64,000 nucleotides of DNA, from sequence record NC_022968.1; one strand, 5' to 3'. This document shows, piece after piece, positions 16,748-63,811 of the stretch. The stretch is from Escherichia phage 4MG. The first letter of the stretch is position 1; each line of letters opens with the position of its first letter. The notes under the pieces were generated by a model that was not told where the DNA came from, searched no databases, and was given only the letters and a program-made list of their open reading frames with translations. Position numbers and translations under genes: made by a program.

Positions 16748-18001
16748 ATGAAAGTATATCTGGTAGGTGGCGCAGTACGTGACGGTTTGCTTGGTCGTGA
16801 AGTTCATGACCGTGACTACGTGGTTGTGGGTGCAACGCACGAAGAAATGATCAATAAAGGTTTCACCCAGGTTGGCGCTGCTTTTCCAGTATACCTGCAT
16901 CCTGAAACCAACGAAGAGTATGCTTTGGCCCGTACCGAGCGCAAGACGGGCAACGGTCATACAGACTTCGAAACATTCTTCAGCCCGGACGTGACTTTGG
17001 TTGAGGATTTGTCTCGTAGAGACCTGACGATCAACGCTATGGCTAAAGATTTGGAAACAGGAGAGATCATCGACCCGTTTGGTGGTCAGTATGATATCGA
17101 AAAGAAAATTCTGCGTCATACAACGCTGGCATTCCTTGACGATCCTCTCCGCATCCTGCGTGTGTACCGATTCAAAGCACAACTGGGCAAAGACTGGGAA
17201 ATCCATGCCGACACTAAAGCTCTGTGCTTTAATAACCGTTATGGGCTGTCCCACATCAGCGGTGAGCGTAAGTGGAAAGAGATGGAGAAAGCCCTTGGTT
17301 CTGACAACTTCCGGGCATATGCTGAAGCAATGGCAGAGCTTGGTGAGTTGCCAGAACTGGATGCCCTGCGTGGAGTAGCACAACCACCAGAACACCACCC
17401 GGAAGGTGATGCTTTCGTTCATACACTGCTGTGTTTGGATGTGGCTGACCTTTACGAGGCTAACCCGTATACCAAATTTGCAGTGCTGTGCCATGACTTC
17501 GGTAAGGCGATCACTTTCCGTAAATACGGCAATCTGATCGGGCATGAAGAGGCAGGTCTGGAACCAGTACGTACATTGTGTGAGCGTATCCGTGTGCCTA
17601 ACGACTTCCGTGATGTTGCACTGTACGTAACAGAGCACCACACCCGTGTTCACTGTATCGCCCCTCGTGGCGGCAATAAGGGTGCAAAGCCACGGTCACT
17701 GATGAAACTGTTTGAGGCAGCAGGTAATGTGGCGAGCGCCAAAACAGCGATGAAGGTTGGTTCTTTGGCAGATGCGTGTTTCTGCGATGCAAAAGGTCGT
17801 GGTCCAACAAAAATTGCAGAGCCGTATCCGCAGGGTTATGTTCTGATGGATGCTTTCCGTTGCATGAAGGCTGTTGACACTAAGGTGATCTCTGCTGAGT
17901 GCCTTGCAAAAGGTAAGAGCGGTATCGAGATTGGTGAAGCTATTCGTGTTGCACGTATTGATGCTATCCGTAGCATCACCCAGCGTGAAATTAAGTGGTA
18001 G
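16748..18001 (+). CDS. cca: CCA-adding tRNA nucleotidyltransferase with HD domain
   Basis: MKVYLVGGAVRDGLLGREVHDRDYVVVG ... RRDLTINAMA ... HD-domain residues; close resemblance to E. coli Cca recalled from memory. Confidence 0.85.
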   Translation: MKVYLVGGAVRDGLLGREVHDRDYVVVGATHEEMINKGFTQVGAAFPVYLHPETNEEYALARTERKTGNGHTDFETFFSPDVTLVEDLSRRDLTINAMAKDLETGEIIDPFGGQYDIEKKILRHTTLAFLDDPLRILRVYRFKAQLGKDWEIHADTKALCFNNRYGLSHISGERKWKEMEKALGSDNFRAYAEAMAELGELPELDALRGVAQPPEHHPEGDAFVHTLLCLDVADLYEANPYTKFAVLCHDFGKAITFRKYGNLIGHEEAGLEPVRTLCERIRVPNDFRDVALYVTEHHTRVHCIAPRGGNKGAKPRSLMKLFEAAGNVASAKTAMKVGSLADACFCDAKGRGPTKIAEPYPQGYVLMDAFRCMKAVDTKVISAECLAKGKSGIEIGEAIRVARIDAIRSITQREIKW

Positions 18002-20209: not shown

Positions 20210-20547
20210 AAGACGTTCGTGGTGAAACCCTGAATGTTGGTGATGAGGTTTATATCTACTGGGGGTATAACCAATTGCGCCCAGCCGTGGTAAAGCAGAT
20301 CACTAAAAACAAGGCCAAAGTGTTTTGTGACGGGTCACTCTCCAAATGGAAGTCAGGTGAGTGCATGATCAAGGCAGAAGAACCAACAGGCTACTACCCT
20401 GACGAGGTGATCATGCTTCTTGAAGAGATTCGTCGTATTCGGGATGAGGCTCCGATGAATAAAGAGGGTCTTCCAACAAAACAACTGTGCCAGGGGCTTC
20501 TGAATTTTTGGGATATGAAGCGCCCAATGAAACTGGTTACCTCTTAA
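20206..20547 (+). CDS. hypothetical protein
   Basis: ATGA overlap. Confidence 0.45.
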   Translation: MKDVRGETLNVGDEVYIYWGYNQLRPAVVKQITKNKAKVFCDGSLSKWKSGECMIKAEEPTGYYPDEVIMLLEEIRRIRDEAPMNKEGLPTKQLCQGLLNFWDMKRPMKLVTS

Positions 20548-20555
20548 GGAGAGAT

Positions 20556-21629
20556 ATGAAAACTTTTGATATGATGCGATGCTACTCAGGTAGCCTCGCG
20601 TATGGGACTAATCTCCCAACATCGGATGTTGATATCCGTGGTCTGTTCTGTGCGGAACCTAAGTTCATCCGTACTCCATTCTTCAATATCAAAGAGCAGA
20701 CGCTCGCTGATGAAGAGGATGGTAAGATCTACGAACTGACAAACTTCATGAAGTTGTTTGTGGAGATGAACCCCAACATCATCGAACTGATGTTTGTTGA
20801 TGAAAAAGATATCATTTCCAGTTCAGACGCTTACGCATACCTGCGTACAATGGCACCTGAGCTTATGTCAAGTAAGGTTGCATTTAGCTTCTCTGGTTAT
20901 GCTATGGCACAGCTTAAGCGTATCCGTGGTCATGATAAGTGGATCACCAATCCGCAACCGGAGGAAAAGCCAACGCAAAAGGACTTCTTCCGTTTAGTCC
21001 ACAACTACAGTGAGCACCCTTTCCTTGCTGGTGTAATTAAGCACGAACGCTTCATGGAGGCCATGACAAATCTGAACGATATGTGCGTCCTCGTTCCTTA
21101 TGGCAACGACATCTATGGTGTGATGGAGAACTTCAGTAGCTCAGGTATGTTCAACGCAGATGGTTCTATTCGTCATGTTGACTACCAGCAACTGTCTGAT
21201 ACAGACAAGCGCCGGAAACCTGTGTTCATTGTAAAGTATCTGGCAGAAGAGCACAAACAGGCAAAGGAGAAGCACCGTAACTACTGGGCCTGGAAGCAGA
21301 ACCGTAACGAAGTGCGTCATCAGCTTGAAGTGAACTTTGGGTACGACACCAAACACGCCATGCATCTTGTACGTCTGATGCGCATGGCTGAAGAGATCCT
21401 GACTGATGGAAAGGTTCTGGTGAAGCGTCCTGACGCTCAAGAACTCTTAGATATCCGTGGTGGCAAGTGGACTCTTGACGAGCTTCTTAAATGGGCTGAT
21501 GAAAAAGATCATTACATTCGCGAAGTTCTGTACAAAAAGACAGACCTGCCGAAGTACACCGATCTTGAGTTAGCTTCTCGTGTTCTCATGACAGCGCAGG
21601 ATATCTGCTGGGCGAGTATGGATGTTTGA
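20556..21629 (+). CDS. Pol-beta superfamily nucleotidyltransferase (minimal NTase or CD-NTase-like)
   Basis: SGSLAYGTNLPTSDVDIRG = GS-x9-13-DxD nucleotidyltransferase motif; RBS TAAGGAGAG. Confidence 0.55.
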   Translation: MKTFDMMRCYSGSLAYGTNLPTSDVDIRGLFCAEPKFIRTPFFNIKEQTLADEEDGKIYELTNFMKLFVEMNPNIIELMFVDEKDIISSSDAYAYLRTMAPELMSSKVAFSFSGYAMAQLKRIRGHDKWITNPQPEEKPTQKDFFRLVHNYSEHPFLAGVIKHERFMEAMTNLNDMCVLVPYGNDIYGVMENFSSSGMFNADGSIRHVDYQQLSDTDKRRKPVFIVKYLAEEHKQAKEKHRNYWAWKQNRNEVRHQLEVNFGYDTKHAMHLVRLMRMAEEILTDGKVLVKRPDAQELLDIRGGKWTLDELLKWADEKDHYIREVLYKKTDLPKYTDLELASRVLMTAQDICWASMDV

Positions 21630-49529: not shown

Positions 49530-49912
49530 GCTGTCTCCAGATAGTCTTTCAGATATTCGATGACGTAGCTACGTGCATAGTTCTCATCAGCATCGTTATG
49601 CCACATTTTAGTGACAACACCAGTCAATTTGTATAGTGAACGTTCAAAATGGTTCATCCCCGGAAGAATACTCACCATAAAATCCTCTTCCTCACTAATT
49701 TCAAGAGGATTAACAGTGAAGTCTGGTTGAACTAGTGTCTCCCAGGCTCCATTTTTGAACCGTTTTAAGGTCAAGGCACGACGATTTGAAGAGGTAAGAT
49801 ACTCAGAGTAGTCATCCCCCTGGTGAAAACCGATCCTGACCATAGCCCCACTGTACATAAAATCAACATCCACAGTGAGGCGCTCTACCTTCAGCCTATT
49901 TTGCGTGTTCAT
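49526..49912 (-). CDS. hypothetical protein
   Basis: ATGA overlap. Confidence 0.45.
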   Translation of the reverse strand: MNTQNRLKVERLTVDVDFMYSGAMVRIGFHQGDDYSEYLTSSNRRALTLKRFKNGAWETLVQPDFTVNPLEISEEEDFMVSILPGMNHFERSLYKLTGVVTKMWHNDADENYARSYVIEYLKDYLETA

Positions 49913-51332
49913 CTAAGTCAACAGCCCTCCCAAATGGTGGGTCGTACTTGGATTTGTTACGTCCACACAGCACCCACAACGTATCCCACTTCTTACCCCA
50001 GTCTTTTTTGCGTGAGGTAAGGTCTTCAATGTACCCATCAGTGAAGATTATCACATCTTTTGCATCAGGGATATTCTTTTCGATGTATTCAAAGGCAACA
50101 CCAGCGCGTGTACCACCTGTGGAAGTCACATTATAGTCCAGCATCTCCTTGATGTTATCCTGTGTGTACACTTTCACTTCCCCAACCATCGTAGACCAGC
50201 AGAAAAGTGTTACCCGGAAGCACTTATACAGGGTGCACAGGCCAATAATCTCATTGAATATCCTGGTCATGGTCTGTCTGCTGATAGAACCCGACACATC
50301 GAAGCATACAACGATGTCGATTGTCTCAGATTGCTTCCTTCCCGGAAGAATAATGCTCTGTTTGTGGGTGATTGCCCCATAATTACGCAGTACCTGGGTC
50401 ACCGAGCCAGACCTACGAGCGGGTTTACGGTACGAAAGGTGCGACCTCACACGAGAAACCATACGTTGTTTAATGATTTTCATGTAGTCAATGTGTGGTT
50501 TCCGCATTCTTGCAATCAATTCCCGCGCTTCTTTCGGCCCTTCACCCCCGGCAGCACTCATTGCAGCATCAATCAGCCCAGCAGACCACGCAAGATTCTC
50601 ATCTTTGGCGATTGGGCCGAGGCTTGGGTGCGGGTCTACATACCCAAGGATGTCACGCTCAGGGTCATAATCCCCGATATGTGTACCCATAGGGTTGCCA
50701 GTAACCGCTTTCCCATTGTAGATCATCTCGTAAATTTCTTCTGCTGTCTTGTTTTGGAATGCAAAATCACAATAGCAGTAGGCAAGGAATCCAAATTCTT
50801 TGTCTTTATTGAACTTAGTTTGCGCCCCCAGAGGGAAGAACTTCAGGGTTTTATTCCTTGGCCCCAAGTCTCCAGCCACCAAATCTGTGTTGATGTACTG
50901 ATCCGCTGCGATATTGTACATCTTGGAGTTGAAGCTTTTACCACGGGCCATATGGTCGTTGGTGATATGGCGTATTTCATGCATGAGAATAACCACCACT
51001 TCTTTTGGTGTTTTCTTGCGATAGAATACGTCTACATACGTCTTGTAATCATCCTTCTGTTGTTGTGTCATTGTTGGATGATTGTCAATACGATCAAACA
51101 CTTTCTTTTTGCGCTCTGCTGGCATACCCATAATGAACTCAGGGTTGTAATACAGATTACGATGGTCTGTTGCAGCCGTTGGCAACCAACGCCAGTCAGC
51201 GATGATCGGTAAAGAACTCAGCAAAGTTCCGTAAAATGGGCGATGTTGCAGCAATGCAATACGTGCTGACTGAATTAGTTTTAGCGCTTCATCTTGAAGC
51301 TTAGAGATCATCTCAGATTCATCTTTGTACAC
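49896..51332 (-). CDS. metallopeptidase-like / von Willebrand factor A domain protein (DUF2201-like architecture)
   Basis: HEIRH (HExxH) in N-terminal half; DVSGSI (MIDAS DxSxS) in C-terminal half; start set at GTG with GGAG RBS. Confidence 0.55.
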   Translation of the reverse strand: MYKDESEMISKLQDEALKLIQSARIALLQHRPFYGTLLSSLPIIADWRWLPTAATDHRNLYYNPEFIMGMPAERKKKVFDRIDNHPTMTQQQKDDYKTYVDVFYRKKTPKEVVVILMHEIRHITNDHMARGKSFNSKMYNIAADQYINTDLVAGDLGPRNKTLKFFPLGAQTKFNKDKEFGFLAYCYCDFAFQNKTAEEIYEMIYNGKAVTGNPMGTHIGDYDPERDILGYVDPHPSLGPIAKDENLAWSAGLIDAAMSAAGGEGPKEARELIARMRKPHIDYMKIIKQRMVSRVRSHLSYRKPARRSGSVTQVLRNYGAITHKQSIILPGRKQSETIDIVVCFDVSGSISRQTMTRIFNEIIGLCTLYKCFRVTLFCWSTMVGEVKVYTQDNIKEMLDYNVTSTGGTRAGVAFEYIEKNIPDAKDVIIFTDGYIEDLTSRKKDWGKKWDTLWVLCGRNKSKYDPPFGRAVDLDEHAK

Positions 51333-51344
51333 AGTTATCTCCAA

Positions 51345-51381: not shown

Positions 51382-51645
51382 TCACTCTTCTACAGGATGC
51401 AAGAACTTTTGTGGTAAAAAGTGATCAAGCCCTTCTATTCTGAAACACCAGGCCAACTGAGCACCAGGAGCACCGGGGAAATGTGGGATAGCAAACAAGA
51501 CAATCCCATCAACTTTTCCAATTACGAGTCGCCCCATAGAGGTTGTTGATACCTTTTGACCGAACTTGATATCCGGAATAAAGCCTGCATCCAACATTTT
51601 CTTTTCAGGAGCCGACGCGGGTCGGCCCAGCATTTCTTCGTACAT
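51382..51645 (-). CDS. hypothetical protein
   Basis: TAATG overlap with upstream gene. Confidence 0.45.
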   Translation of the reverse strand: MYEEMLGRPASAPEKKMLDAGFIPDIKFGQKVSTTSMGRLVIGKVDGIVLFAIPHFPGAPGAQLAWCFRIEGLDHFLPQKFLHPVEE

Positions 51646-52577
51646 TACACCACCTTGTTGAGCATCGCAGCAATCTTAGGCAGGCCCATCTCTGTCTGAA
51701 TGATCAGTTGGGTCAGCGCCTTTTCCATTTTCTTCGACACAATGATGAAGTTGTCTTTAGCAAAACCAACTTTAAGGTCCATAATCAGGATCGCCTTTGG
51801 TTCACCAGACAGCTTCTCTCCGGTCAGAGAGCAGGTATTGCGAATATACTTCGCTTTGAACTGTGCATAGGTCACAGAAACGTTCATACCAGCGTCGGAG
51901 AATGTCTTGCAGTAGTTGGCGTAGGCCAGCGCTACAGCAACATCATCAGGCAGTTTTTGCTTCTCTTCCGCTGGTGCTGTAGTTTCTTCTGCAACCGGAG
52001 GCTGTTTATGGAAGTGCTGTTCAGCAAGTTCCATTGCGGAAGACGCGGTGCGCTCTTTAGGTTCCGGGTGACGTGGAAAATCTTCTGCAACAACAGGTTT
52101 TTCTACAACTTCTGAAGTATCTACTGGCATTTCTTTCTCCTCTTTTGGAATATATTTGGTTTTCAGTTTTTCCATGTGCTCTTTTGACATGTTGAGCATC
52201 ATTGCTTGTACGATTTCACGGTCAAGTGGCTCAATTATAGTGATTGCCGTCTTCTTGTCAACCAAACAATCTTTCAGTTCGTTAGCACGTTGAAGAACAA
52301 CACAGACGTTACCACGTACATAACCCTTCTTATCGTTGATACGCTCAACGGTTGGGTACAGCGGGTCTTTTTCACCATGCACAGAGCGCATACTGAAGTC
52401 CATATTGGTATAGTCACATTTACCCATACCAAGAAGCTTTTCACCCATCATGAACCAGTCATCAAGGGTCAGACTGAATTCCAGGCCACGTTTCTTTGTG
52501 CGTTCAACCTTTTTACGGTAACGTTCCTCTAGACTTTTGATCTCACTGGCGGTAAATTTCTTTTTCACATCAAACAT
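51645..52577 (-). CDS. hypothetical protein with degenerate HNH_3-like segment
   Basis: ERINDKKGYVRGNVCVVLQRANELK resembles the C-terminal half of HNH_3; minus-strand AAGGAG RBS. Confidence 0.45.
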   Translation of the reverse strand: MFDVKKKFTASEIKSLEERYRKKVERTKKRGLEFSLTLDDWFMMGEKLLGMGKCDYTNMDFSMRSVHGEKDPLYPTVERINDKKGYVRGNVCVVLQRANELKDCLVDKKTAITIIEPLDREIVQAMMLNMSKEHMEKLKTKYIPKEEKEMPVDTSEVVEKPVVAEDFPRHPEPKERTASSAMELAEQHFHKQPPVAEETTAPAEEKQKLPDDVAVALAYANYCKTFSDAGMNVSVTYAQFKAKYIRNTCSLTGEKLSGEPKAILIMDLKVGFAKDNFIIVSKKMEKALTQLIIQTEMGLPKIAAMLNKVV

Positions 52578-52647
52578 TTTCTACTCCTTGGGTTATTCCC
52601 GTTCTTGTTGGGAGAATTATCCTGGATTGTGTCCCCACTGTCAACAC

Positions 52648-52676
52648 TTGATTTCAAAATTTTTACAGTGTATGCT
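52648..52676 (+). promoter_or_regulatory. sigma70-type promoter
   Basis: TTGATT - 17 nt - TATGCT, then GAGGAA RBS and ATG at 52708. Confidence 0.55.
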
Positions 52677-52707
52677 TTCTATACATTCAGTAAGCAGAGG
52701 AATAAAA

Positions 52708-53739
52708 ATGAGTAAGTTTAACGTTGATGTGCGACCCGTGTCTGTCCCAAAAGTGACTGCGGATATAGACTGGAGCCTGTTGAAAGATGACCAAACAACC
52801 CGTGACATGCTGGAACAGCTACAGAGAGAAAGGGAGTATCGACAAATGGCAATGATAGGTATGTGGGAAAACCCACGAGCCAGTAAGGATGAGTTTATCT
52901 CCCGTTTGCAACCCAAGATGGTGGAGGATAATCCTTTCGTAGAACTGCTCAGAGAACTTGTTGATAGGGTTGATGTCAGAGATGGCCCATATTCATGGTT
53001 ATGGGGGACATATGAAGACCGCCGTGGTGGTATGGACAGACGCCAAATGGCAAGATTAGAAGTAGAAATAAGAGAAAGAAACCCTTCCTCAAGCCCTTTT
53101 GAGCGCGCGCCGGGTGAGGATGTATCACGGGGTAGTGTTATCGCTTCTATTCGTGGTCATGGTGATGGTGCAGCGCTTATTGATAGTCATAACTGGCGTT
53201 TGTCTTCACGCACAAGGAACTTTCTCTCTATCTTGAAGCCACTGATCCGGCAAATGGGCCGCTGTGAGCCTGACCTGGTGATAAAGGCAGATTTCAGAAG
53301 GTATAGTGCCAGTACATCGAGCTTTATGCAGCCGCGCTCTGATATCGACCTGCTGGGTATTTCTTTAACCATTGGCGACCTGCTTGTATATTGTGATTTC
53401 AGAGATCGTGATAATTTTGATGTACACTGCAATCACATTGGACACAGTGTTTTCCATTTGCGTGACCAAGGTGTAAGGGTGCAGAATGCTCGTGAGGCGA
53501 TGTTGATTTGCAATAAATATGAAACGCTCTTCACTTTTAAGTGGGACGAACGTCTGAGAAACATGATGGCAGGTGAATCTCCAACGGAAGATGAACTGCT
53601 AATGATGGAAATGGCTGGTTATAAAGATGAATTTTGGCTTGACAAGATAGATTACTTTGATACACTCAAGATCAAACCTTTTAACATGATGGAGCAATCA
53701 CGATGGTACGAACAAACAATTCCTCGATTCCAGTTTTAA
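52708..53739 (+). CDS. hypothetical protein
   Basis: 343 aa, trimmed start. Confidence 0.5.
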   Translation: MSKFNVDVRPVSVPKVTADIDWSLLKDDQTTRDMLEQLQREREYRQMAMIGMWENPRASKDEFISRLQPKMVEDNPFVELLRELVDRVDVRDGPYSWLWGTYEDRRGGMDRRQMARLEVEIRERNPSSSPFERAPGEDVSRGSVIASIRGHGDGAALIDSHNWRLSSRTRNFLSILKPLIRQMGRCEPDLVIKADFRRYSASTSSFMQPRSDIDLLGISLTIGDLLVYCDFRDRDNFDVHCNHIGHSVFHLRDQGVRVQNAREAMLICNKYETLFTFKWDERLRNMMAGESPTEDELLMMEMAGYKDEFWLDKIDYFDTLKIKPFNMMEQSRWYEQTIPRFQF

Positions 53740-54212
53740 CCCCGGCACAAGAACTCGCTTTAGCGATTAAAATTGCAGCAGAAGGCCACCTGAATCAGAA
53801 AGATAAGGGTGGTAACCCGTATATTCTTCACCCGCTGAAGGTGATGCACTACCTGAAGACCGATGATTTTCAGCTTATGGCTATCGCCGCGCTTCATGAT
53901 GTGGTTGAAGACACCGATGTTACCGCTTCGGATCTGGTAATGCTGGGCTTCTCGAATCGTGTGAAGGATGCTGTGGTTCTTCTGACGAAAACCCCTAATC
54001 AGACACCGGAAGAGTATTTTAACCGCCTAGCCCAAAACTACGATGCGGTACGTGTGAAGCTTGCAGACCTGCGCCATAACTCTGATGTTCGTCGTCTGAA
54101 AGGGCTGACGGATAAAGATTTGTTGCGTGTTCGTAAGTATCACGACATGTACCTTCGTCTGACAAAGATGAAAGAACACCATGAAGCAATCAATATGTTG
54201 TCGCAACTATGA
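53703..54212 (+). CDS. HD-domain (p)ppGpp hydrolase-like protein (small alarmone hydrolase)
   Basis: HLNQKDKGGNPYILHP ... AALHDVVEDT ... LADLRHN match the RelA/SpoT hydrolase motifs. Confidence 0.6.
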   Translation: MVRTNNSSIPVLTPAQELALAIKIAAEGHLNQKDKGGNPYILHPLKVMHYLKTDDFQLMAIAALHDVVEDTDVTASDLVMLGFSNRVKDAVVLLTKTPNQTPEEYFNRLAQNYDAVRVKLADLRHNSDVRRLKGLTDKDLLRVRKYHDMYLRLTKMKEHHEAINMLSQL

Positions 54213-55500: not shown

Positions 55501-55713
55501 AGCCTTTAGATTTTAACAGGGACGTTCCTCGTCATCGACACCGCCTTAGTCGTCGTGCATGGTATGTGGTTTTTGGTGCTGGTAGGGTGCATCAAACAGA
55601 TAAGTTATTGCCGAAAGACCTTGCAGAGAGAATCCATACCCTATACAATGATATAGACCCCATTGATATTGAGGGGGTAATTGAAAGTTATCTTGAACAA
55701 AGGAGACAAACTA

Positions 55714-56922
55714 ATGTCGAGTCGTAACATTTTTGATGAGAACCGTATCACACTTCGGGATGTTCCTGATCTGATGAAGTTCTGTCAGCGTCGTGGACGC
55801 GCTTTGATGATGTTTGGTGGTGCTGGTCTTGGCAAGAGCCAGGCAATGAAGCAGGTAGCCAATATGATGTTTGGTGAGCGTGACGACAACCTGATCGACT
55901 TCCGTCTTGCGGATAAAGAACCGTCTGACGTTGTTGGGGTGCAGATCCCCGTTACCGACAACAATGGTATTACACGTACTGTGTACGCTATCCCAAGCTT
56001 CTGGCCTGATGATCCGAACTGGCAGGGCATTGTGTTCCTGGATGAGTTGCTCCATGCGGAGCCATATCTCCAGAAAGTTGCCTATCAGATCATGCTTGAT
56101 CATAAGATCGGTACATATAAGTTCCCGGTAGGCGCGGTGTTTGCAGGTGCAGGTAACCGCCCTGGTGATGGTACTGCGGTAAGTATGCTGGAAGCTCCAC
56201 TGGCTAACCGTATGATCCTCGTTGAACTGGATTACGACACAACTGTTTGGTTACAGGACTTCGCTATGCACAACGATGTTCACCCATCCGTTGTTGGTTT
56301 TGTGAGCGCAAACCCAAGTAAGATCGAAAACTATGAAGAGATGCTGGAGATTAACTCCCCTTCATACGCCACTCCGCGTACTTGGGTCACCGCAAGTGAT
56401 ATTCTGTACGATTATGACGCAGGCCTGCTCTCTGCTCGTCTGGCACTGGCATCGTTGCAGGGTAGTATCGGTAAGCCTCTGGCTAACGAACTGTGGGAAT
56501 ACCATACCCGTATCTCCAAAATGGTCTCTATCGAGGATGTGATGAGCGGTAAACTTACTAAACATACCGGGGCTGACTCATCCGACATCCTGTGGACACT
56601 GGGTTCTCAAGGTTCTATCTGGCTTCGTAAGGCTATCCAGAACAAGGAGTACACTGATGATGAGGTTATCGCGTTTGCTGCTAACTTCCTGAAGTATATG
56701 TATGATAACTTCGGGCAGGATGACACGGCATCCAACCGTGACTTCGTAAGTTCGGTGTTTATGTCCTTCATCCAGGAGAACTCCTTCGGGAAGGCGATCC
56801 TGATGTCGGGTAACCGTGAGCGTTTACCTGCTAAACTACTCCAGAAATACCCGGTGGTTATGGAGATCATCACAGAATACCGTAAGAACTTCTCTGACGG
56901 TGTAGATGCAATCGTGAACTAA
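55714..56922 (+). CDS. MoxR/CobS-like AAA+ ATPase
   Basis: Walker A GGAGLGKSQ, Walker B IVFLDELLHAEP; trimmed to ATG after AAAGGAGACAAACTA. Confidence 0.65.
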   Translation: MSSRNIFDENRITLRDVPDLMKFCQRRGRALMMFGGAGLGKSQAMKQVANMMFGERDDNLIDFRLADKEPSDVVGVQIPVTDNNGITRTVYAIPSFWPDDPNWQGIVFLDELLHAEPYLQKVAYQIMLDHKIGTYKFPVGAVFAGAGNRPGDGTAVSMLEAPLANRMILVELDYDTTVWLQDFAMHNDVHPSVVGFVSANPSKIENYEEMLEINSPSYATPRTWVTASDILYDYDAGLLSARLALASLQGSIGKPLANELWEYHTRISKMVSIEDVMSGKLTKHTGADSSDILWTLGSQGSIWLRKAIQNKEYTDDEVIAFAANFLKYMYDNFGQDDTASNRDFVSSVFMSFIQENSFGKAILMSGNRERLPAKLLQKYPVVMEIITEYRKNFSDGVDAIVN

Positions 56923-56931
56923 GGGGGCGTT

Positions 56932-57621
56932 GTGTCTGGAGATCGCTGGATTCTGTATCGTCAACAGCATGAGCTTGGGTTTTATGAGCTTAAACTCTGC
57001 CTGAACAGTGGTGATGAGTGGGCGTATGCCCCTATCATCTCTCTTGGCTCTGGAAGCCAACAGGCAGATTTTGCTGCTGAGGATTATTTTAAAAGGTCTT
57101 TACCTTTGCTAGGAGAAGAGGGCTACGACAGAAGTATAGACCTGAAGCAGAAGAGAAGCTATGTTGAGGTGGAGACAGACACACAACGCAGACACCTTAG
57201 TTTTATCGAAAGGGGAATATTCCCCTTTGGTGAATGGGCGGGTGTTGCTTTCGAGGACTGTCCCCCACCCCTGCTGTTGTGGTATATCAACGGGGGTGAT
57301 TTTGATAACCTCAAAATTTCTTGCTCTCTGAAGGCAGCGTGTCTTGGTGCGTATCTTTCAATTCAGGATCGTGCTGATTATTACAAACCATCAAGGGACA
57401 AGGTGAGTCTTTCTGGAACCATATTACGCTGTGAAAGGTTCAGAGAGATGTACAGCGTTCATATGGTAACAGAAGACAGGAATTACTTGACCTTCCTGAG
57501 CAAGACACAATACGAATGTGGTGATGAGGCCTGTTTTAATGGCTACATTATTGAGAACATGGAATGGGGTGGTATCTGCTACAATCGTGGTTCTTCTAAA
57601 AAACCTGCTAAAAACATTTGA
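56932..57621 (+). CDS. hypothetical protein
   Basis: GTG start after CTAAGGGGGCGTT. Confidence 0.45.
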   Translation: MSGDRWILYRQQHELGFYELKLCLNSGDEWAYAPIISLGSGSQQADFAAEDYFKRSLPLLGEEGYDRSIDLKQKRSYVEVETDTQRRHLSFIERGIFPFGEWAGVAFEDCPPPLLLWYINGGDFDNLKISCSLKAACLGAYLSIQDRADYYKPSRDKVSLSGTILRCERFREMYSVHMVTEDRNYLTFLSKTQYECGDEACFNGYIIENMEWGGICYNRGSSKKPAKNI

Positions 57622-57646
57622 CAGCCTCTTCGGAGGCTGTTAATCT
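57618..57646 (+). promoter_or_regulatory. sigma70-type promoter whose spacer is a hairpin (may also act as a weak terminator)
   Basis: TTGACA - GCCTCTTCGGAGGCTGT - TAATCT. Confidence 0.4.
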
Positions 57647-57680: not shown

Positions 57681-58022
57681 ATGCAAATTACTGAAACTCT
57701 GAATGACCAACAACGTCTGATGTCTCTTGGACACAAAGAGGCTCTGCAACAGAACTTCCCGATCTTCAACGAACTGACCACCGATGGTTATGAGGTTGAG
57801 TTCTATTATGTTGATGGTTTTGGTGGCCTGACCATCGTTCCAAGCGTGAAGCGTATCCGCGTTAAAGCGAACCAGGAAGCGCTGTCTGACGTGGACTACT
57901 GCTCTAAACTGGCACATAAGGTCCGTCAATCCTTTGAATCTCGTCTGACAAATCCGAAATTCCTGTCAGGTCAGAAGATCTCCAGTGCATTCAAAAACAA
58001 GAAGGGGAAATACCGTGTATAA
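57681..58022 (+). CDS. hypothetical protein
   Basis: RBS GAGGATAAACTCAA. Confidence 0.5.
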   Translation: MQITETLNDQQRLMSLGHKEALQQNFPIFNELTTDGYEVEFYYVDGFGGLTIVPSVKRIRVKANQEALSDVDYCSKLAHKVRQSFESRLTNPKFLSGQKISSAFKNKKGKYRV

Positions 58023-58206
58023 CTTAACCTGGGAACAAGCAAAGCAGGCAATGCGTGAAGGTAAGCGTGTACGCAACCAATATTTCACCAGCGATGAGTG
58101 GTTTGAAATGGTTGATGGGCGTATCTACGCAGAGGACGGTTGCCCTATGGCAGGCTGGTATCGTGGTGAGGCGTGGCAGGATGAAGGCTGGAGTGTGATC
58201 GAATGA
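58015..58206 (+). CDS. DUF2829-like small protein, possible Thoeris anti-defence (Tad2-like) signal sponge
   Basis: N-terminal YNLTWEQAKQAMREGKRVRNQYF resembles the DUF2829 pattern; GTG start overlapping upstream stop. Confidence 0.35.
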   Translation: MYNLTWEQAKQAMREGKRVRNQYFTSDEWFEMVDGRIYAEDGCPMAGWYRGEAWQDEGWSVIE

Positions 58207-58351
58207 TCTACAAAAACCAATTCTGTAATGTTTGGCGCAAGTTTGTTAACGGTAAAGGCTATGTATCTGGTGACCAAGGCCTTACTTGGACAGAGAACGG
58301 CGCTCCTGAAGACCTGATCAAGCGTTTACCTTACTATGTGGAGAGCAAAGC

Positions 58352-58552
58352 ATGACAACAAAGTGGATCGAGACCCCCAATGGTGTTAATGACATCCCTG
58401 TTGGTTACTGGTGTGTTGTCATGAAAGATGGGAAACCCGGCTTTTGCGAAGCCAGTAAGGGTAACGGTTGCATTCACTACATCATCAACGGGCATTTCTA
58501 TTTCGATATGGAACCTGTTGTTGCGTATTGTAAATTCCCACTTTGGCTTTAG
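58352..58552 (+). CDS. hypothetical protein
   Basis: ATGA overlap. Confidence 0.45.
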   Translation: MTTKWIETPNGVNDIPVGYWCVVMKDGKPGFCEASKGNGCIHYIINGHFYFDMEPVVAYCKFPLWL

Positions 58553-58562
58553 GAGAGAAAGT

Positions 58563-58856
58563 ATGAGCCGCAGACCCGGTTTCGGTTATATCTACATTGT
58601 TGATAAAGAAGGTGATGATCGCCTGGTGCGTCTTGGTTCTCTCGATATCGACTACGTGAAGGACCAGTATGGTCCTGATGCAAAGAACTGCCATATCCGT
58701 GAAGATAGTGGCTTCTGCCAGTCGTCATGGACAGCGGGTGAATCTGCTGGTGCAATTCTGGCTAAAATCTCAGAGCACGATAAAGAGTATGTCCATTTTG
58801 TCCGTGACTTTGCTCAACGGAACCACATTGTCCTGATGAAGGGGGAGTTATGGTAG
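58563..58856 (+). CDS. hypothetical protein
   Basis: Trimmed to ATG after TAGGAGAGAAAGT. Confidence 0.5.
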   Translation: MSRRPGFGYIYIVDKEGDDRLVRLGSLDIDYVKDQYGPDAKNCHIREDSGFCQSSWTAGESAGAILAKISEHDKEYVHFVRDFAQRNHIVLMKGELW

Positions 58857-59047
58857 AATTTAGACCTGTTCCGGATTATGCAGATGTTATGTCAGCGGAA
58901 GATTGGTCAAACTGTGTAAGGGTCGGTGCATTTATTCCCGATGATGGTGATGGGTACTGGTGCAAAAATGATATATCCGAATCCAATATCAGTTGCTGGA
59001 AGCCTAAGCCGGAGTGGGCCACCCATGTTGCGTGGTACAATCGCTAA
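58850..59047 (+). CDS. hypothetical protein
   Basis: ORF. Confidence 0.4.
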   Translation: MVEFRPVPDYADVMSAEDWSNCVRVGAFIPDDGDGYWCKNDISESNISCWKPKPEWATHVAWYNR

Positions 59048-59219
59048 TGGCTAAGTTTAAATTCCAGAAATCCGAACTAAATGAGCGTTGGTGGCTTGAC
59101 ACCGCCAACCTTGTTGTGGGAGGATACACCTACAAAAGGCATCGGGTGTTCGTTGTCTGTGCTAAAACCAAAGCAGAAGCTCGTGAGAGCATGGCTGCTT
59201 TCATTGAGAGGAGTTGTAT

Positions 59220-59732
59220 ATGACGATTGAATTAAAACTGGACACAGCGGCAGTAGAAAAGCTTTTCCCAGAGGGGACAGAACTGCGTGTAAACCTACAA
59301 CAATCTGTGGTGAACAATATCGCCAAGCGGATTCTTGATCGCGATATCTCTGTTCGCCTGGAAACCTTGATCCGTACCCATGTGGCGCATGAGTGCGGCA
59401 TGATGGACCTGAATACCCTGGTCAAGAATGCTCTTGATGCACACCTTGAGAAAACTGGCTGGCATGATCACCGTCTTAAGGATAGCACCACCTCACAGAT
59501 CCGTGAATTGGTTAAGAAAAAGGTGCAACAGCTTGCGGATTCAGAAATGCAAAAGATCATTAACGATACCCTTTCTCGTTCTACCAATACGATGAAGGAT
59601 ACCCTTGATCGCCATATCGACAATGCGCTTCAGGATGTGGAAAAACACATCGCTACACGCCTTAACCAGAAATTCGCTGCGGTTGTTGATGCTGCGATTG
59701 CTGCTAAACTCGGTATGGAGGTGAAGAAATGA
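59220..59732 (+). CDS. hypothetical protein
   Basis: RBS GAGGAGTTGTAT. Confidence 0.5.
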   Translation: MTIELKLDTAAVEKLFPEGTELRVNLQQSVVNNIAKRILDRDISVRLETLIRTHVAHECGMMDLNTLVKNALDAHLEKTGWHDHRLKDSTTSQIRELVKKKVQQLADSEMQKIINDTLSRSTNTMKDTLDRHIDNALQDVEKHIATRLNQKFAAVVDAAIAAKLGMEVKK

Positions 59733-60223
59733 GCTTCAAATACAAAGTTGGTGACCTGATCGAAGCGGTCAAGAATGGTGAGGTTAATGTTTTTGCGCAT
59801 GGCTGCAACTGTTTTTGCACAATGGGTAGCGGTATCGCACCACTGATCAAAGAAGCGTTTCCGAAAATGTACGCTGCGGATCTGAAGACCGAGAAGGGTG
59901 ATAAGCATAAGCTTGGAACCTACACAATGGCCTTCCTGAAGGACGGCGAAGCTGCTGGTTTTAATCTGTATTCGCAATATGGCTATAATCGCCGTAAACA
60001 GGGCCTCAGGGACCTCGATTACAATGCCCTGTATGATTCGTTGGATTTGATGAAGAAGGCCTTACAGAGCTTTACAGACGGTTCTGTGGCTGACTACAAA
60101 ATCGGCTTCCCTAAAATCGGTGCTGGTCTTGCAGGCGGCGACTGGAACGTCATCGAAGCGATGATCAAGTCCGTGTTTTGGGATTGCGATGTCACAATCT
60201 ACATCCTTCCGGAGAAAAAGTGA
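59729..60223 (+). CDS. macro domain protein (ADP-ribose binding or hydrolysing)
   Basis: VFAHGCNCFCTMGSGIAPLI and IGFPKIGAGLAGGDW match the two glycine-rich macro-domain motifs; ATGA overlap. Confidence 0.55.
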   Translation: MSFKYKVGDLIEAVKNGEVNVFAHGCNCFCTMGSGIAPLIKEAFPKMYAADLKTEKGDKHKLGTYTMAFLKDGEAAGFNLYSQYGYNRRKQGLRDLDYNALYDSLDLMKKALQSFTDGSVADYKIGFPKIGAGLAGGDWNVIEAMIKSVFWDCDVTIYILPEKK

Positions 60224-60411
60224 TGTTCGTGATAATCTATTTGGCTATGTGGGTTCTGGCAACAACTGTATTCATCAGGCGCTGGCAGCGTCAGTTTGGA
60301 AGGGTTGATGCCTTTATCTTGGTATCGGCTATCTTTGCAGGGTTCTTTTGGTTCGCATACTTCCCGATTTTGGTAATCCTTCGCTTAATAAACGGAGACT
60401 GGAGATCATGA
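60223..60411 (+). CDS. small membrane protein
   Basis: Two hydrophobic segments; overlapping start. Confidence 0.4.
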   Translation: MFVIIYLAMWVLATTVFIRRWQRQFGRVDAFILVSAIFAGFFWFAYFPILVILRLINGDWRS

Positions 60412-60608
60412 TCGAATTAAAAGATGGTATGGTTGCACATACTAAAAAGATCGACCTTCATGTCGGTAATACGGTGTTCACCTATAACGCCCCTCGTGGT
60501 CAGAGCTTTGCTATCCTACTCCTTGGTGCAGAGAAGCCAAGTGGTGACGGCACTGGTATCCAGATCGATGAGTGGCTGAAGAATCGCGGTTGGAAACTGG
60601 AGGACTAA
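60408..60608 (+). CDS. hypothetical protein
   Basis: Trimmed start. Confidence 0.45.
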   Translation: MIELKDGMVAHTKKIDLHVGNTVFTYNAPRGQSFAILLLGAEKPSGDGTGIQIDEWLKNRGWKLED

Positions 60609-60850
60609 TGTATTATAAACATAAAAGCGCAGACCAGCAGAAAGAATTATTCGCTATTTTGGATACGGATAACAACTCTTTCTGGTTCTCAGGTATGAAT
60701 CGTGTAGCATATTCATCCTCTGGGATTGCAAAGACAGCGTTCTCTTCCAGCGCGAAAAATCCTCTCCGCTGCAAGTTCGGAGAACAGACTCGCTTTAAGA
60801 TTGTTCGCGTAGCGATTACACCAGAGGGGATTATTGCTCATGAGGTATAA
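60608..60850 (+). CDS. hypothetical protein (paralog pair, copy 1)
   Basis: Shares D-T-x-FW-x-G-x-AW/Y-x-S-xG-AK-xA...RxK...Q-TR-x-V-V pattern with next gene. Confidence 0.5.
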   Translation: MYYKHKSADQQKELFAILDTDNNSFWFSGMNRVAYSSSGIAKTAFSSSAKNPLRCKFGEQTRFKIVRVAITPEGIIAHEV

Positions 60851-61088
60851 AAAACGACTTGACACAGTTTTCTTAATCTTCGATACTGAGGACGGTATTT
60901 TGTGGAGTCATGGGCCAAAGGCTGCTTGGATAAGTACCGGGGCAGCAAAGAATGCCTGGAACTTATGCTCTAAGTCATACTATGACGACAAAGGCGACCG
61001 CATAAAACCGAAGTTTGACGATCAAACGCGTTATGTCATCGTTGAAATTCATGAAAATTTTGTTAGAAATCTTGTAGAGGAGAAATAA
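60840..61088 (+). CDS. hypothetical protein (paralog pair, copy 2)
   Basis: Tandem duplicate of previous gene. Confidence 0.5.
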   Translation: MRYKKRLDTVFLIFDTEDGILWSHGPKAAWISTGAAKNAWNLCSKSYYDDKGDRIKPKFDDQTRYVIVEIHENFVRNLVEEK

Positions 61089-61475
61089 ATGACTATGAGT
61101 AAATCTTTGGGCCAAACTACCCCTGCACAGCCTACAGAAATTGGGGGTAAGCGTTTCGCTGGTATCCTGCGTGATGTGGAACCGTTCTTCGGTTTCGGTA
61201 CGCATAAAGAGGTTCGTTGCATCTATGGTATCTTGGGCCGTGACCACAAAAACCGTGGCTTTGATGGTGGGCCGGTCCGTACTTCTGTTGTGCAGGATCT
61301 GATTGTCCATGAAGGTGATATTTATGCTATCACTATGAATAGCGCCTATCTGCTGGAAAGCGTACAGCTTCAGCATTTTATCGCCAGCGATATTTGGCGT
61401 GATGACATTGCCAAGCTCATTGCTCTCGCAATGATTGGTCAGGCAGCAAAGAATGAGGAGTCTAAAATTGACTAA
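61089..61475 (+). CDS. hypothetical protein
   Basis: ORF. Confidence 0.45.
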   Translation: MTMSKSLGQTTPAQPTEIGGKRFAGILRDVEPFFGFGTHKEVRCIYGILGRDHKNRGFDGGPVRTSVVQDLIVHEGDIYAITMNSAYLLESVQLQHFIASDIWRDDIAKLIALAMIGQAAKNEESKID

Positions 61476-62514
61476 ACCTATTAAGTACCCAAGCACCAAC
61501 CAGTTCCGTCAGGTTATTAAGGCGATTCATGATCGCCTGACCTTTGATGGTATTGATGAGAATGGAAACATCAAGCGCAAGGTTGTTGCGCCAGATCAGT
61601 ACCTGATCCCGTACATCGGTACAGTTAAGATCCACGGGACCAACGGCAGCATTGTCTTCCACTCTGAAGATGAGGTTGTTTTCCAGTCCAAAGAGCGTAT
61701 CGTTCAGGTTGGGGATGACAACAACGGCTTTGCTGCGTTCATGACCCGTAAAGATACCAAAGAGCTTCTGGAGCAGGTCAAGTACCTGTGTGAATGCAAT
61801 GACACACCATTCTCTTTCCCAGTTGAGATCGCTGGTGAGTGGGCTGGTCGCGGTATCCAGAAAGGCGTTGCTGTAAGCGAAGTTGAGCCGTTCTTCACGA
61901 TCTTCCGTGTTGCGGTTGGTCGCAATGAAGAGGGAAATTCCCTGAACTGGATGCCACCAAACTTCCAGTACGGCATTGGCCTGCCACAACAGCGGATCTT
62001 CAGTGTTCTTGACTTTGGTTTCTGGTCTGTGCAGATCCCATTCAACGAACCTGAACTGGTACAGAACGATCTGACCACACTGACGATGCAGGTTGAAGCC
62101 TCCTGCCCGGTTGGGAAACACTTCGGCGTTGAAGGTGTTGGTGAAGGCATTGTGTGGTCTCCTCTGCAACCTGAACTGGCTAAAGACTCCGGTCTGTGGT
62201 TCAAGGTGAAAGGCGAGAAGCACTCTGTGTCTAAGGTGAAAACTCTGGCTGAAGTTGACCCAGTACGTCTTCAGAACATGCGTGAGTTTGTTGACTACGC
62301 TGTGACTGAGAATCGCCTTGAGCAGGCTCTTGGTGAGGTTGGTCTCGACCAAACCAAGATCGGTGAGTTCATCGCATGGGTTAGTCGTGACATCAACAAG
62401 GAAGAAGGCGATGTTCTGGAAGCTAACTCCCTGACCATGAAGGATGTTGCGAAGTTCATCAGTAACAAATCTCGTGGCTGGTACATGCAGAAACTGAACG
62501 AGAGTCCACTGTAA
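61468..62514 (+). CDS. Rnl2-family RNA ligase
   Basis: VKIHGTNGSIV (motif I KxHGxN) and AGEWAGRGIQKG parallel T4 Rnl2 EKIHGTNFSL and FGEFAGPGIQKN as recalled; TTG start after GAGGAG. Confidence 0.6.
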   Translation: MTKPIKYPSTNQFRQVIKAIHDRLTFDGIDENGNIKRKVVAPDQYLIPYIGTVKIHGTNGSIVFHSEDEVVFQSKERIVQVGDDNNGFAAFMTRKDTKELLEQVKYLCECNDTPFSFPVEIAGEWAGRGIQKGVAVSEVEPFFTIFRVAVGRNEEGNSLNWMPPNFQYGIGLPQQRIFSVLDFGFWSVQIPFNEPELVQNDLTTLTMQVEASCPVGKHFGVEGVGEGIVWSPLQPELAKDSGLWFKVKGEKHSVSKVKTLAEVDPVRLQNMREFVDYAVTENRLEQALGEVGLDQTKIGEFIAWVSRDINKEEGDVLEANSLTMKDVAKFISNKSRGWYMQKLNESPL

Positions 62515-62875: not shown

Positions 62876-63238
62876 ATGGTAAAATCGAATGTTATTACTA
62901 TCAATGGACAGACCATTGTCAATGGTAGTATTAATTTCAATGGTGACCTGAACATCACCTCGAATGGAGATAACGTCTTCATCAATGGTGAACTTGTTCA
63001 CACCACACAGGAAAAGAACATCACTGTCGTTATTAACGGTGACACTAAGGGGATCAGCACAGTCTCTGGTGATGTCAACGTATACGGCACAGTGGCTGGT
63101 AACATCAAAACCACCTCTGGTGATGTTCACGTTGAAAACGGCGCACTTGGTGACGTTACCACAGTGTCCGGAGATGTACGTGCAAAAACAATAGAAGGCA
63201 ATGTAAAAACTGTCTCAGGCGATATCTCCCGCCGTTAA
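62876..63238 (+). CDS. repeat protein with beta-helix-like periodicity (bactofilin-like?)
   Basis: Repeated SGDV/NGxx units; RBS AAGAGGAGAAAGT. Confidence 0.5.
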   Translation: MVKSNVITINGQTIVNGSINFNGDLNITSNGDNVFINGELVHTTQEKNITVVINGDTKGISTVSGDVNVYGTVAGNIKTTSGDVHVENGALGDVTTVSGDVRAKTIEGNVKTVSGDISRR

Positions 63239-63243
63239 TTGAT

Positions 63244-63266
63244 AGCCCCTGCCCTGGGGCTTTTTA
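63244..63266 (+). terminator. rho-independent terminator
   Basis: GCCCCTGCCCTGGGGC followed by TTTTT. Confidence 0.7.
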
Positions 63267-63280
63267 ATTTGGAGCGTAAT

Positions 63281-63811
63281 TTGAAAGTAAAAAATCTGAT
63301 CCTGGCAACCGCCTGTGTGTTTTCTCTAGCCACCACGCCTGTACTGGCTAAAGACAACGCAAAGAAGCCCAAGGTGATTCATCTCTGCAAAAAAGATGAT
63401 TCAGCGGTAAATATCTTGGCATGTAATATGTATCGTGAAGCCCGTGGTGAGAGCGATTCTGGGATGATGTCTATCGCCTTTGTCACCCTTAACCGAAAGG
63501 ACAACGATAAGTTCCCTCACACCGTAAAGAAGATCGTGTACCAGTCCGGGCAATTCTCCTGGACATCTGGTAGTTCTTCCTTCAAAGTGTATGAAAAGGA
63601 GCGTTGGGAAAAGGCAAAAGAGTTTGCCTCGTTTCTAATCAAGGTGCATACCACGAACAAAATTGTGTATGATGCCCTTGACATCACTAAGGGTTCTACG
63701 TATTATCACTCAAAGAAGGTTAAACCATACTGGACGAAAGTTATGATTCGCACTGTAAGGATTGATAACCACATTTTCTATAAAGAGAAGCCTGAATCCC
63801 AGGGAGCCTGA
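63281..63811 (+). CDS. secreted SleB-like cell wall hydrolase
   Basis: N-terminal signal peptide (LILATACVFSLATTPVLA); NMYREARGES ... VTLNR ... YQSGQFSWT match Hydrolase_2/SleB motifs; TTG start after GGAG. Confidence 0.55.
   Translation: MKVKNLILATACVFSLATTPVLAKDNAKKPKVIHLCKKDDSAVNILACNMYREARGESDSGMMSIAFVTLNRKDNDKFPHTVKKIVYQSGQFSWTSGSSSFKVYEKERWEKAKEFASFLIKVHTTNKIVYDALDITKGSTYYHSKKVKPYWTKVMIRTVRIDNHIFYKEKPESQGA

Follow-up and report, generated by a model that had tools for sequence, protein, structure and literature searches.

Three genes of Escherichia phage 4MG (NC_022968.1) have their closest described counterparts in the macrodomain protein AdfM of phage T4, the Tad2 immune-signal sponges and the T4 RNA ligase Rnl2. 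We analyzed a window of 64,000 nucleotides (nt) of this genome, the whole stretch available to us, with emphasis on the block of genes at 57681-62514, which encodes a 63-amino-acid (aa) protein, a macrodomain protein and an Rnl2-family RNA ligase among other small proteins. An earlier note on this DNA had read the block as a toolkit against nucleotide-signalling, ADP-ribosylating and RNA-cleaving host immunity. The reading that we favor, and hold to be fairly probable, is that the block is one translationally coupled early/middle operon and a mosaic of small accessory genes, three of which have independent biochemical roles (an AdfM-type macrodomain, a minimal Tad2 fold and an Rnl2 ligase) and stand together by shared descent.

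In T4, tk.4 is the single gene needed for growth on a DarTG2 host; its product was named AdfM and resembles the DarG macrodomain (bioRxiv 10.1101/2025.11.20.689424). SCO6735, BT1257, TARG1 and DarG belong to the ALC1-like class. SCO6735, TARG1 and DarG all undo the ADP-ribosylation of thymidine by DarT, and this reversal has been proposed as a class-wide activity (PMC9411070). In SCO6735, the catalytic Lys has given way to Gln85, which Asn27 and Gly87 hold in place, and DNA binding is aided by a mobile loop that is longer and rich in Lys (PMC9411070).

The Tad2 sponge for glycocyclic ADP-ribose (gcADPR) is a homotetramer of two V-shaped dimers, each formed through helix α2, and the β2-β3 insertion holds both this helix and the cyclic-dinucleotide pockets. 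The contacts with gcADPR are W25, N26, W73, S76, T78 and D79 in SPO1 Tad2 and W21, N22, W87, S90, T92 and D93 in HgmTad2, and binding by HgmTad2 is abolished in the mutants W21A/N22A and S90A/T92A/D93A. The signals bound by Tad2 relatives are diverse, and CBASS, Pycsar and Thoeris of types I, II and IV are all inhibited by such proteins (PMC12393519).

The macrodomain protein

The 164-aa protein encoded at 59729-60223 (+ strand; YP_008857476.1) carries the database label 'phosphatase'. Pfam, BLASTP, PDB and NCBIfam searches all placed it among the macrodomains of the ALC1/TARG1/DarG class, in the SCO6735/BT1257 subtype. It passed the Pfam Macro model (PF01661) with 24.0 bits against a cutoff of 22, residues 24-141 aligning with positions 2-113 of the 118-position profile, and the glycines of both Gly-rich loops (G33/G35 and G131/G133) were invariant in the alignment, as the earlier note had read from the two glycine-rich motifs. 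BLASTP with T4 Tk.4 gave 36% identity (E 2e-29) over the full length, residues 1-157 against 1-148, and both proteins fell into phrog_335 (213 and 223 bits). The sequence matches in the PDB were all of the ALC1 class and comprised BT1257 (2AFC/2FG1, E 2e-7), TARG1/OARD1, Poa1p, 5M3I, SCO6735 (5E3B) and the DarG macrodomain of T. aquaticus (5M31/5M3E). The top NCBIfam match was the DarG antitoxin model (E 3.9e-8). Homologues were found by tblastn in 3,012 phage records, and in T-even phages the gene adjoins vs.

BT1257, whose identity with SCO6735 is 54%, served as the aligned reference for scoring the subtype features of SCO6735. The alignment placed N27, Q83-Y-G85 and a long loop from Y86 to R94, containing R88, R89, K90 and R94, in the active site of the 4MG protein. 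The features listed for the subtype (PMC9411070), namely Asn27, a Gln-x-Gly motif, a longer basic mobile loop and the Gly-rich loops, were all present: N27, Q83-x-G85 and the Arg/Lys-rich loop match Asn27, Gln85, Gly87 and Lys89/93 of SCO6735. As in SCO6735 (5E3B) and BT1257 (2FG1/2AFC), Gln-x-Gly thus stands in place of the catalytic Lys of TARG1 and DarG. However, the identity with these proteins is only ~25%, and SCO6735 is a cellular enzyme under DNA-damage control, whereas the 4MG protein is the product of a phage early gene.

With T4 AdfM, the protein shares the format of a single-domain phage macrodomain of ~155-164 aa, membership in PHROG 335, the motifs HGCNCF, NLYxQ and P(K/R)IGAG, and a position amid small early genes. 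The Asn and Gln residues are kept in both proteins, but the loop after Gln83 is six residues longer in 4MG and is Arg/Lys-rich, as in SCO6735 and BT1257.

The 4MG macrodomain protein is probably an AdfM/SCO6735-type DNA ADP-ribosyl glycohydrolase, which would make 'phosphatase' a historical label. By homology, it would most likely strip the ADP-ribose that a DarT2-type toxin attaches to thymidines in single-stranded phage DNA, so that replication can resume. As in SCO6735, Asn27 and Gly85 would keep Gln83 in position and the basic mobile loop would grip the DNA. Several points weigh against this assignment. The evidence on AdfM comes from one preprint, on a T4 protein with just 36% identity, and the six-residue loop segment is absent from that protein. 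In addition, the 4MG protein also resembles Poa1p-type ADP-ribose-1''-phosphate phosphatases and OARD1, so that other substrates are possible. A role of the macrodomain in countering ADP-ribosylating defence, as suggested in the earlier note, is nevertheless well supported at the level of sequence by the AdfM homology and the SCO6735-type active site. The gene appears to be the best-supported counter-defence gene of the block and a credible candidate for a factor against DarT2, a type that has already been described. If it acts like T4 AdfM, protection from DarTG2 reaches well beyond the T-even phages, with homologues in ~3,000 phage genomes, and the 'phosphatase' annotation in rV5-like phages needs correction. 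No gene for a NADAR (AdfN-like) protein was found in ten further open reading frames (ORFs) of the window that were scanned.

The 63-aa protein

The 63-aa protein (gp096, YP_008857469.1; 58015-58206, + strand) is labelled 'hypothetical' and is acidic, with 12 Asp/Glu against 7 Lys/Arg and an isoelectric point (pI) of 4.6. We searched it directly against Pfam and NCBIfam, and both were empty, including PF11195 (DUF2829, Tad2-like) even at E<=1. A phmmer search of the PDB returned only a chance match to dodecin, and a word-indexed protein search returned close relatives only. A profile built from 15 close relatives, run against 1.8 billion representatives, retrieved 385 proteins at E<=1e-3. The members of this family, which we call mini-Tad2, are ~60-70 aa long and share the consensus MTxxEAxxAMxxGKKVxHxYFTxxE...EDGY...GW. 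PF11195 was matched by 51 of 100 relatives at E<=1 (best 1.9e-6), and one relative (P0062) passed its gathering threshold of 25 bits with 31.6 bits. The hidden Markov model search for DUF2829 was thus negative for the protein itself but gave matches at E<=1 for about half of the relatives examined.

Comparisons of profiles and structures agreed with the fold that the earlier note had guessed from the N-terminal sequence. Profile searches of the PDB ranked SptTad2, Tad2, ModTad2 and HgmTad2 within the first six matches (E 0.06-1.1), with N- and C-terminal segments both aligned, and hhalign of the family against the four solved Tad2 proteins gave 89% probability and an E of 2e-6. The AlphaFold2 model had a predicted local distance difference test (pLDDT) score of 95.2, and its nine best Foldseek matches were all Tad2 structures, with template modelling (TM) scores of 0.57-0.69. 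The Tad2 core, consisting of α1, an antiparallel sheet and α3-β5, is present in the model, in which β2 and β3 are joined as a tight hairpin at residues 30-39.

We compared the protein with the described sponges (SPO1 Gp34.65, 8SME; HgmTad2/AcrIIA7, 8KBI; SptTad2, 8WJD; ModTad2, 9EIB; all PF11195), which are 89-104 aa long. The β2-β3 insertion (residues 36-59 in SPO1 and 32-72 in HgmTad2) is absent from the 63-aa protein. In the hhalign alignment, F24 and T25 occupy the positions of the ligand-contacting Trp and Asn. The second Trp is kept as W48 and the Ser/Thr/Asp triad is replaced by G51, E52 and A53 in both the SptTad2 pairwise alignment and the HMMER alignments; global pairwise alignments were unreliable for HgmTad2 and ModTad2, and only that with SptTad2 was sensible. 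The aromatic walls of the pocket are therefore retained, whereas the polar set is lost. The residues invariant in the mini-Tad2 family are A9, G16, F24, E28, E40, G42 and G58-W59.

Our tentative proposal, which we hold to be possible rather than probable, is that the 63-aa protein is the founding example of a minimal, insertion-less Tad2 clade (Phe/Thr, Gly/Glu/Ala and invariant Glu28/Glu40) that sequesters an immune signal distinct from gcADPR in its canonical binding mode, possibly one unassigned to any sponge. The protein would most likely oligomerize via helix α1 and bind a small molecule between protomers, in a pocket that we infer to be lined by F24, T25, I37, A39, M45, W48 and E52. Since Tad2 relatives bind diverse signals, a different ligand is plausible. 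What weighs against a sponge is that N22 of HgmTad2 corresponds to T25 and S90/T92/D93 to G51/E52/A53, that the dimerization helix α2 is absent, that the strictly conserved E28 and E40 have no Tad2 counterpart, and that the protein itself has no direct match to PF11195. Because the polar triad and the insertion are missing, a ligand is probably not bound as canonical Tad2 binds gcADPR, and the label of gcADPR sponge goes beyond the evidence. The earlier suggestion of a Tad2-type signal sponge thus held for the core fold, but not for the gcADPR contacts or the insertion. That the protein sequesters an immune signal of any kind is a minority prospect, albeit a substantial one.

Homologues of mini-Tad2 occurred in 453 phage records from many lytic enterobacterial lineages, including Vequintavirinae and phi92-like, Felixounavirus-like, T4-like and T5-like phages. 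In the T5-like Salmonella phage Seafire (NC_048110.1), the homologue at 5001-5198 is the last gene of a pre-early operon, which lies near the A2 gene within the 9.6-kb terminal repeat (first-step-transfer DNA). This position fits a very early, host-directed role. Fusion partners were uninformative as a clue to function, one fusion, with a peptide deformylase, being probably a gene-call artefact. The family is the one element of the block that appears to go beyond the literature, as a widespread, minimal and insertion-less variant of a known sponge fold. If it binds an immune signal, the smallest working Tad2 scaffold is 63 aa, and a widespread sponge is present in therapeutic-type phages of E. 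coli, Klebsiella and Salmonella, which bears on host-range prediction and on the search for new signalling molecules with sponges as probes.

The Rnl2-family RNA ligase

The last gene of the block encodes an Rnl2-family RNA ligase (RnlB) with a nucleotidyltransferase and a C-terminal domain. Within the ORF at 61435-62514 (+ strand), the likely start is the TTG at 61468, preceded by a GAGGAG Shine-Dalgarno sequence, which gives a protein of 348 aa (61468-62514). The protein passed Pfam RNA_ligase (PF09414) with 35.1 bits against a cutoff of 27 and matched PHROG 548 with an E of 4.5e-78. It aligned with residues 32-297 of T4 Rnl2 (gp24.1; 2HVQ; phmmer E 0.002), spanning both domains. The two motifs that the earlier note had recognized, KIHGTN and GxWxGxGIQK, were confirmed by this alignment, in which motifs I, III, IV and V read KIHGTN, GEWAGRGIQK, EGIV and KVK, facing what we take to be K35, E99, E204 and K225/K227 of T4 Rnl2.

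The two enzymes therefore share the two-domain architecture and the motifs KIHGTN, GE(W/F)AG.GIQK, EG(I/Y)V and K.K, but the 4MG ligase is very divergent. The sole NCBIfam match, to TIGR02307 (positions 27-312 of 326), reached 30.3 bits against an equivalog cutoff of 197 bits, and the Asp of motif IIIa was aligned with an Arg of the 4MG ligase in the pairwise alignment with T4 Rnl2; both points weigh against the assignment. Judged from its sequence, the protein is a divergent but genuine Rnl2-type enzyme, and it is already annotated as such. Its substrates would be nicks with 3'-OH and 5'-phosphate ends in structured or duplex RNA, and tRNA of the phage or the host may be among the RNAs that it repairs.

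Anticodon nucleases leave 2',3'-cyclic-phosphate and 5'-OH ends, and a kinase/phosphatase is required before ligation, as in the Pnk/Rnl1 pathway of T4. We searched for such a Pnkp-type end-healing enzyme. A motif scan of the 64-kb window, with the remaining ~85 kb of the genome outside the scan, found no ORF combining Walker A and DxDGT motifs, and there was none in the gene tables consulted for phages GAP31 and EC152, including the syntenic 12.6-62 kb of GAP31. The system of T4 RnlA (Rnl1) and Pnk, which acts against PrrC, resembles 4MG in having a phage RNA ligase, and the 4MG genome also encodes a CCA-adding enzyme and an RlaP-type nucleotidyltransferase. However, the 4MG ligase is of the Rnl2 and not the Rnl1 type, and it is not accompanied by a kinase/phosphatase in the window or the syntenic part of GAP31. 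In the literature, we found no demonstrated anti-defence role for any Rnl2-type ligase. Since no end-healing enzyme is encoded in the window, a role of the ligase in defence is unproven, and counter-defence is a possible but unsupported function. Of the earlier proposal that the ligase opposes RNA-cleaving immunity, the genuine enzyme stands and the Pnkp partner in the window is missing. For the role of Rnl2-type ligases in phages, the locus is no shortcut, as there is no end-healing partner beside the ligase.

A second RNA-related group lies ~40 kb from the ligase gene. It consists of an E. coli-type multifunctional CCA-adding/repair enzyme with PolyA_pol and HD domains (16748-18001; 410 bits against a cutoff of 451) and, ~2.5 kb downstream, an RlaP-family 'RNA repair pathway' nucleotidyltransferase (20487-21629; PF10127, phrog_388).

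Organization of the block and alternative explanations

The block comprises 15 genes, all on the + strand, whose starts and stops overlap or abut, indicating translational coupling. A GGAG-type Shine-Dalgarno sequence precedes nearly every gene. The arrangement of co-oriented small genes described earlier was thus confirmed, and all the described features were found. A stem-loop picked up by a terminator-like scan at 57618-57643 (+ strand) has a perfect 11-bp stem, TTGACAGCCTC TTCG GAGGCTGTTAA, which is terminator-like read on both strands. It lies directly 3' of the stop of a 229-aa ORF (57621) and 38 nt 5' of the ATG at 57681, setting this ORF apart from the block, and is a possible transcript boundary or processing site. 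A scan for sigma-70-like promoters gave 24 sites against 19.9 +/- 4 in shuffled controls. As these sites are no commoner than in shuffled sequence, early expression was deduced from context alone.

Several proteins of the window were 100% identical to annotated proteins of phage 4MG (Seunavirus, Vequintavirinae), and the DNA showed 84-91% nt identity with the Seunavirus relatives LNA4, EC152 and GAP31, with patchy coverage. The block is syntenic in GAP31 and EC152, and in the relatives it is followed by genes for a SleB-type endolysin, rIIA, rIIB, helicase, primase and DNA polymerase; its location is the early/middle region. Gene content differed among these close relatives. GAP31 has no equivalent of the 66-aa gene (58352-58552) between GAP31_020 and GAP31_019, its GAP31_017 and GAP31_015 have no 4MG counterpart in the block, and EC152 lacks the 170-aa gene. 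The block is a mosaic accessory region with gene-by-gene differences.

Outside this lineage, the homologues of block genes were 7-20 kb apart. In Klebsiella phage Phi_KR8, the macrodomain gene is at 137 kb and the mini-Tad2 gene at 157 kb, 20 kb apart. In HMGUkp2, the macrodomain gene (15.9 kb) and a homologue of the 170-aa gene (26.2 kb) are separated by 10 kb. In T4, tk.4 is at 61 kb and Rnl2 lies between gene 24 and hoc. The mini-Tad2, macrodomain and ligase genes are therefore neighbors in Seunavirus and related phages by common descent within the Vequintavirinae, and not as a functional module. We also asked whether the 170-aa gene regularly accompanies the macrodomain gene and rejected this idea: homologues of the 170-aa gene, found in 405 phage records mostly of T4-like Klebsiella and Enterobacter phages, do not adjoin the macrodomain gene, lie 7-10 kb from macrodomain or mini-Tad2 genes elsewhere, and are absent from EC152. 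The CCA enzyme and the ppGpp hydrolase that had been noticed elsewhere in the window were both verified, the former at 44 kb and the latter, a RelA/SpoT-type HD protein, at 4 kb from the block. Of the coordinated counter-defence toolkit proposed earlier, the three folds are real and the role of the macrodomain is supported, but the linkage is lineage-specific and the CCA enzyme is far away; the data describe three independent accessory genes, and coordination among them is unproven.

We weighed this operon of independent accessory genes against two other explanations of the block. A dedicated counter-defence island would combine a gcADPR sponge against Thoeris, a macrodomain against ADP-ribosylating toxins and a ligase for repair, with further inhibitors among the intervening genes. 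The Tad2 fold with its aromatic pocket positions (F24 for Trp, and W48), the homology of the macrodomain protein to AdfM and the genuine Rnl2 ligase are consistent with such an island, and so are the CCA enzyme, RlaP nucleotidyltransferase and RelA/SpoT-type hydrolase in the same window, the variation in gene content among close relatives, as arms-race loci would show, and the mini-Tad2 homologue in a T5-like pre-early region. However, the island is unlikely on the evidence: the 63-aa protein lacks the insertion as well as the polar triad and the Asn for gcADPR, no Pnkp-like enzyme was found in either the window or GAP31's syntenic 50 kb, linkage of the three genes does not extend to other lineages, and the other 12 genes have no match to any family of known function. 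Housekeeping is the opposite explanation, in which the genes serve the nucleic-acid metabolism of the phage itself: the macrodomain protein clears ADP-ribose-1''-phosphate or O-acetyl-ADP-ribose as by-products of NAD metabolism, the ligase matures or repairs phage RNA or tRNA together with the CCA enzyme, and the 63-aa protein is a small structural or regulatory protein that has only its fold in common with Tad2. The 'phosphatase' annotation in 4MG, GAP31 and T4 (an A1pp motif) and the PDB matches of the macrodomain protein to the ADP-ribose-1''-phosphate phosphatase Poa1p and to OARD1 would suit it, as would the nucleotide-metabolism genes in the window (NrdAB, ThyX and the CCA enzyme) and the conserved residues of mini-Tad2, which differ from the ligand contacts of Tad2; we found no established biological role for T4 Rnl2 in the literature. 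Yet a T4 tk.4 knock-out is specifically sensitive to DarTG2, and the Gln/Asn/Gly constellation and basic loop match the DNA-thymidine hydrolase SCO6735. Furthermore, the mini-Tad2 family is phage-restricted and found among early and pre-early accessory genes, and 146 of the 227 genes of the Vequintavirinae phage Bas54 are dispensable in the laboratory, which fits accessory and not core roles. We consider housekeeping quite improbable.

For the 63-aa protein, there is the further alternative of a direct inhibitor of a host protein or nucleic acid, which would use the Tad2 scaffold as an acidic decoy or for stoichiometric inhibition and would sequester no small molecule. The acidity of the protein (12 Asp/Glu against 7 Lys/Arg, pI 4.6) and the absence of helix α2 point in this direction, and so do the conserved E28 and E40, whereas the pockets of known sponges are positively charged (PMC12265669). 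A DUF2829 protein was once reported as the anti-CRISPR AcrIIA7, but its anti-Cas9 activity was not reproducible. Every characterized protein with the Tad2 fold is a ligand sponge, and the aromatic pocket positions are kept in the 63-aa protein, and direct inhibition seems to us a rather improbable function.

Other genes of the block and of the window

The twelve block genes other than those for mini-Tad2, the macrodomain protein and the ligase matched no functional family in Pfam, PHROGs or NCBIfam. All are on the + strand. Upstream of the mini-Tad2 gene, 57681-58022 encodes a 113-aa protein that exactly matches 4MG gp097 (YP_008857468.1) and belongs to phrog_27513, of unknown function, with no Pfam or NCBIfam match. 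The mini-Tad2 gene is followed by genes for proteins of 50 aa (58203-58355; phrog_2381), whose ATG overlaps the previous stop by 4 nt, and of 66 aa (58352-58552; phrog_7252). A 97-aa protein starts at the ATG at 58563 behind a GGAG Shine-Dalgarno sequence (58563-58856), phrog_12924 matching residues 46-142 of the longer ORF, and a 65-aa protein follows at 58850-59047 (phrog_14149). The next gene encodes a 58-aa protein (59047-59223; phrog_11116) labelled 'baseplate wedge subunit' in PHROGs and RefSeq, as is GAP31_016; for a gene of this size in an early block, the label seems unlikely. The 170-aa gene (59220-59732; phrog_3806), an accessory gene of patchy distribution, overlaps the start of the macrodomain gene with its stop (ATGA).

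Downstream of the macrodomain gene are genes for a hydrophobic 62-aa predicted membrane protein (60223-60411; phrog_15498, 'membrane protein') and a 66-aa protein (60408-60608; phrog_8770). Two tandem paralogues of phrog_8277 follow, of 80 aa (60608-60850; E 6e-31) and 82 aa (60840-61088; E 2.4e-33), representing a tandem duplication of a small early protein between the macrodomain and ligase genes. The 128-aa protein at 61089-61475 is 100% identical to a 4MG protein labelled 'methyltransferase', a label also found in GAP31 and PHROG 16099, and it has no Pfam or NCBIfam match. Its AlphaFold2 model (pLDDT 82.3) showed a six-stranded β-barrel with a long C-terminal helix and no methyltransferase fold, and the Foldseek matches were weak and confined to the RFTS domain of DNMT1, which is non-catalytic (TM 0.3-0.38). 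We therefore rejected the label as unfounded; it has probably spread because of the resemblance to the DNMT1 RFTS domain.

Upstream of the block, 53703-54212 encodes a 169-aa HD protein similar to the hydrolase portion at the N-terminus of RelA/SpoT (TIGR00691, E 2.2e-15); its score with Pfam HD_4 was 21.9 bits, below the cutoff of 27.2. These matches suggest a small alarmone hydrolase encoded by the phage. The gene overlapping it upstream (52537-53739) encodes a 400-aa protein with the PHROG label 'thymidylate kinase' and no Pfam match. A MoxR-type AAA ATPase (55681-56922, + strand; phrog_1297, Walker A GGAGLGKS) forms a MoxR-VWA pair with a DUF2201 metallopeptidase/VWA protein (49896-51344, - strand). 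The 309-aa protein at 51645-52577 (- strand), whose gene is divergent from the block, has the PHROG labels 'HNH endonuclease', 'decoy of host sigma70' and 'Srd anti-sigma factor', and its homologues are annotated as anti-sigma factors in PVP-SE1 and EC152. On the other side of the block, a 120-aa protein of repeated 'SGDV' β-helix turns (62876-63238) gave a weak Bactofilin match of 18 bits, below the cutoff, and directly downstream lies a gene for a SleB-type cell-wall hydrolase (63239-63811; Hydrolase_2, E 8e-21). The Staphylococcus haemolyticus RefSeq entries WP_229359458.1 and WP_229359560.1 are the same sequences as WZX10795.1 and WZX10788.1 of Enterobacter phage EC152, probably a contamination in which a Seunavirus genome was deposited inside a Staphylococcus assembly.

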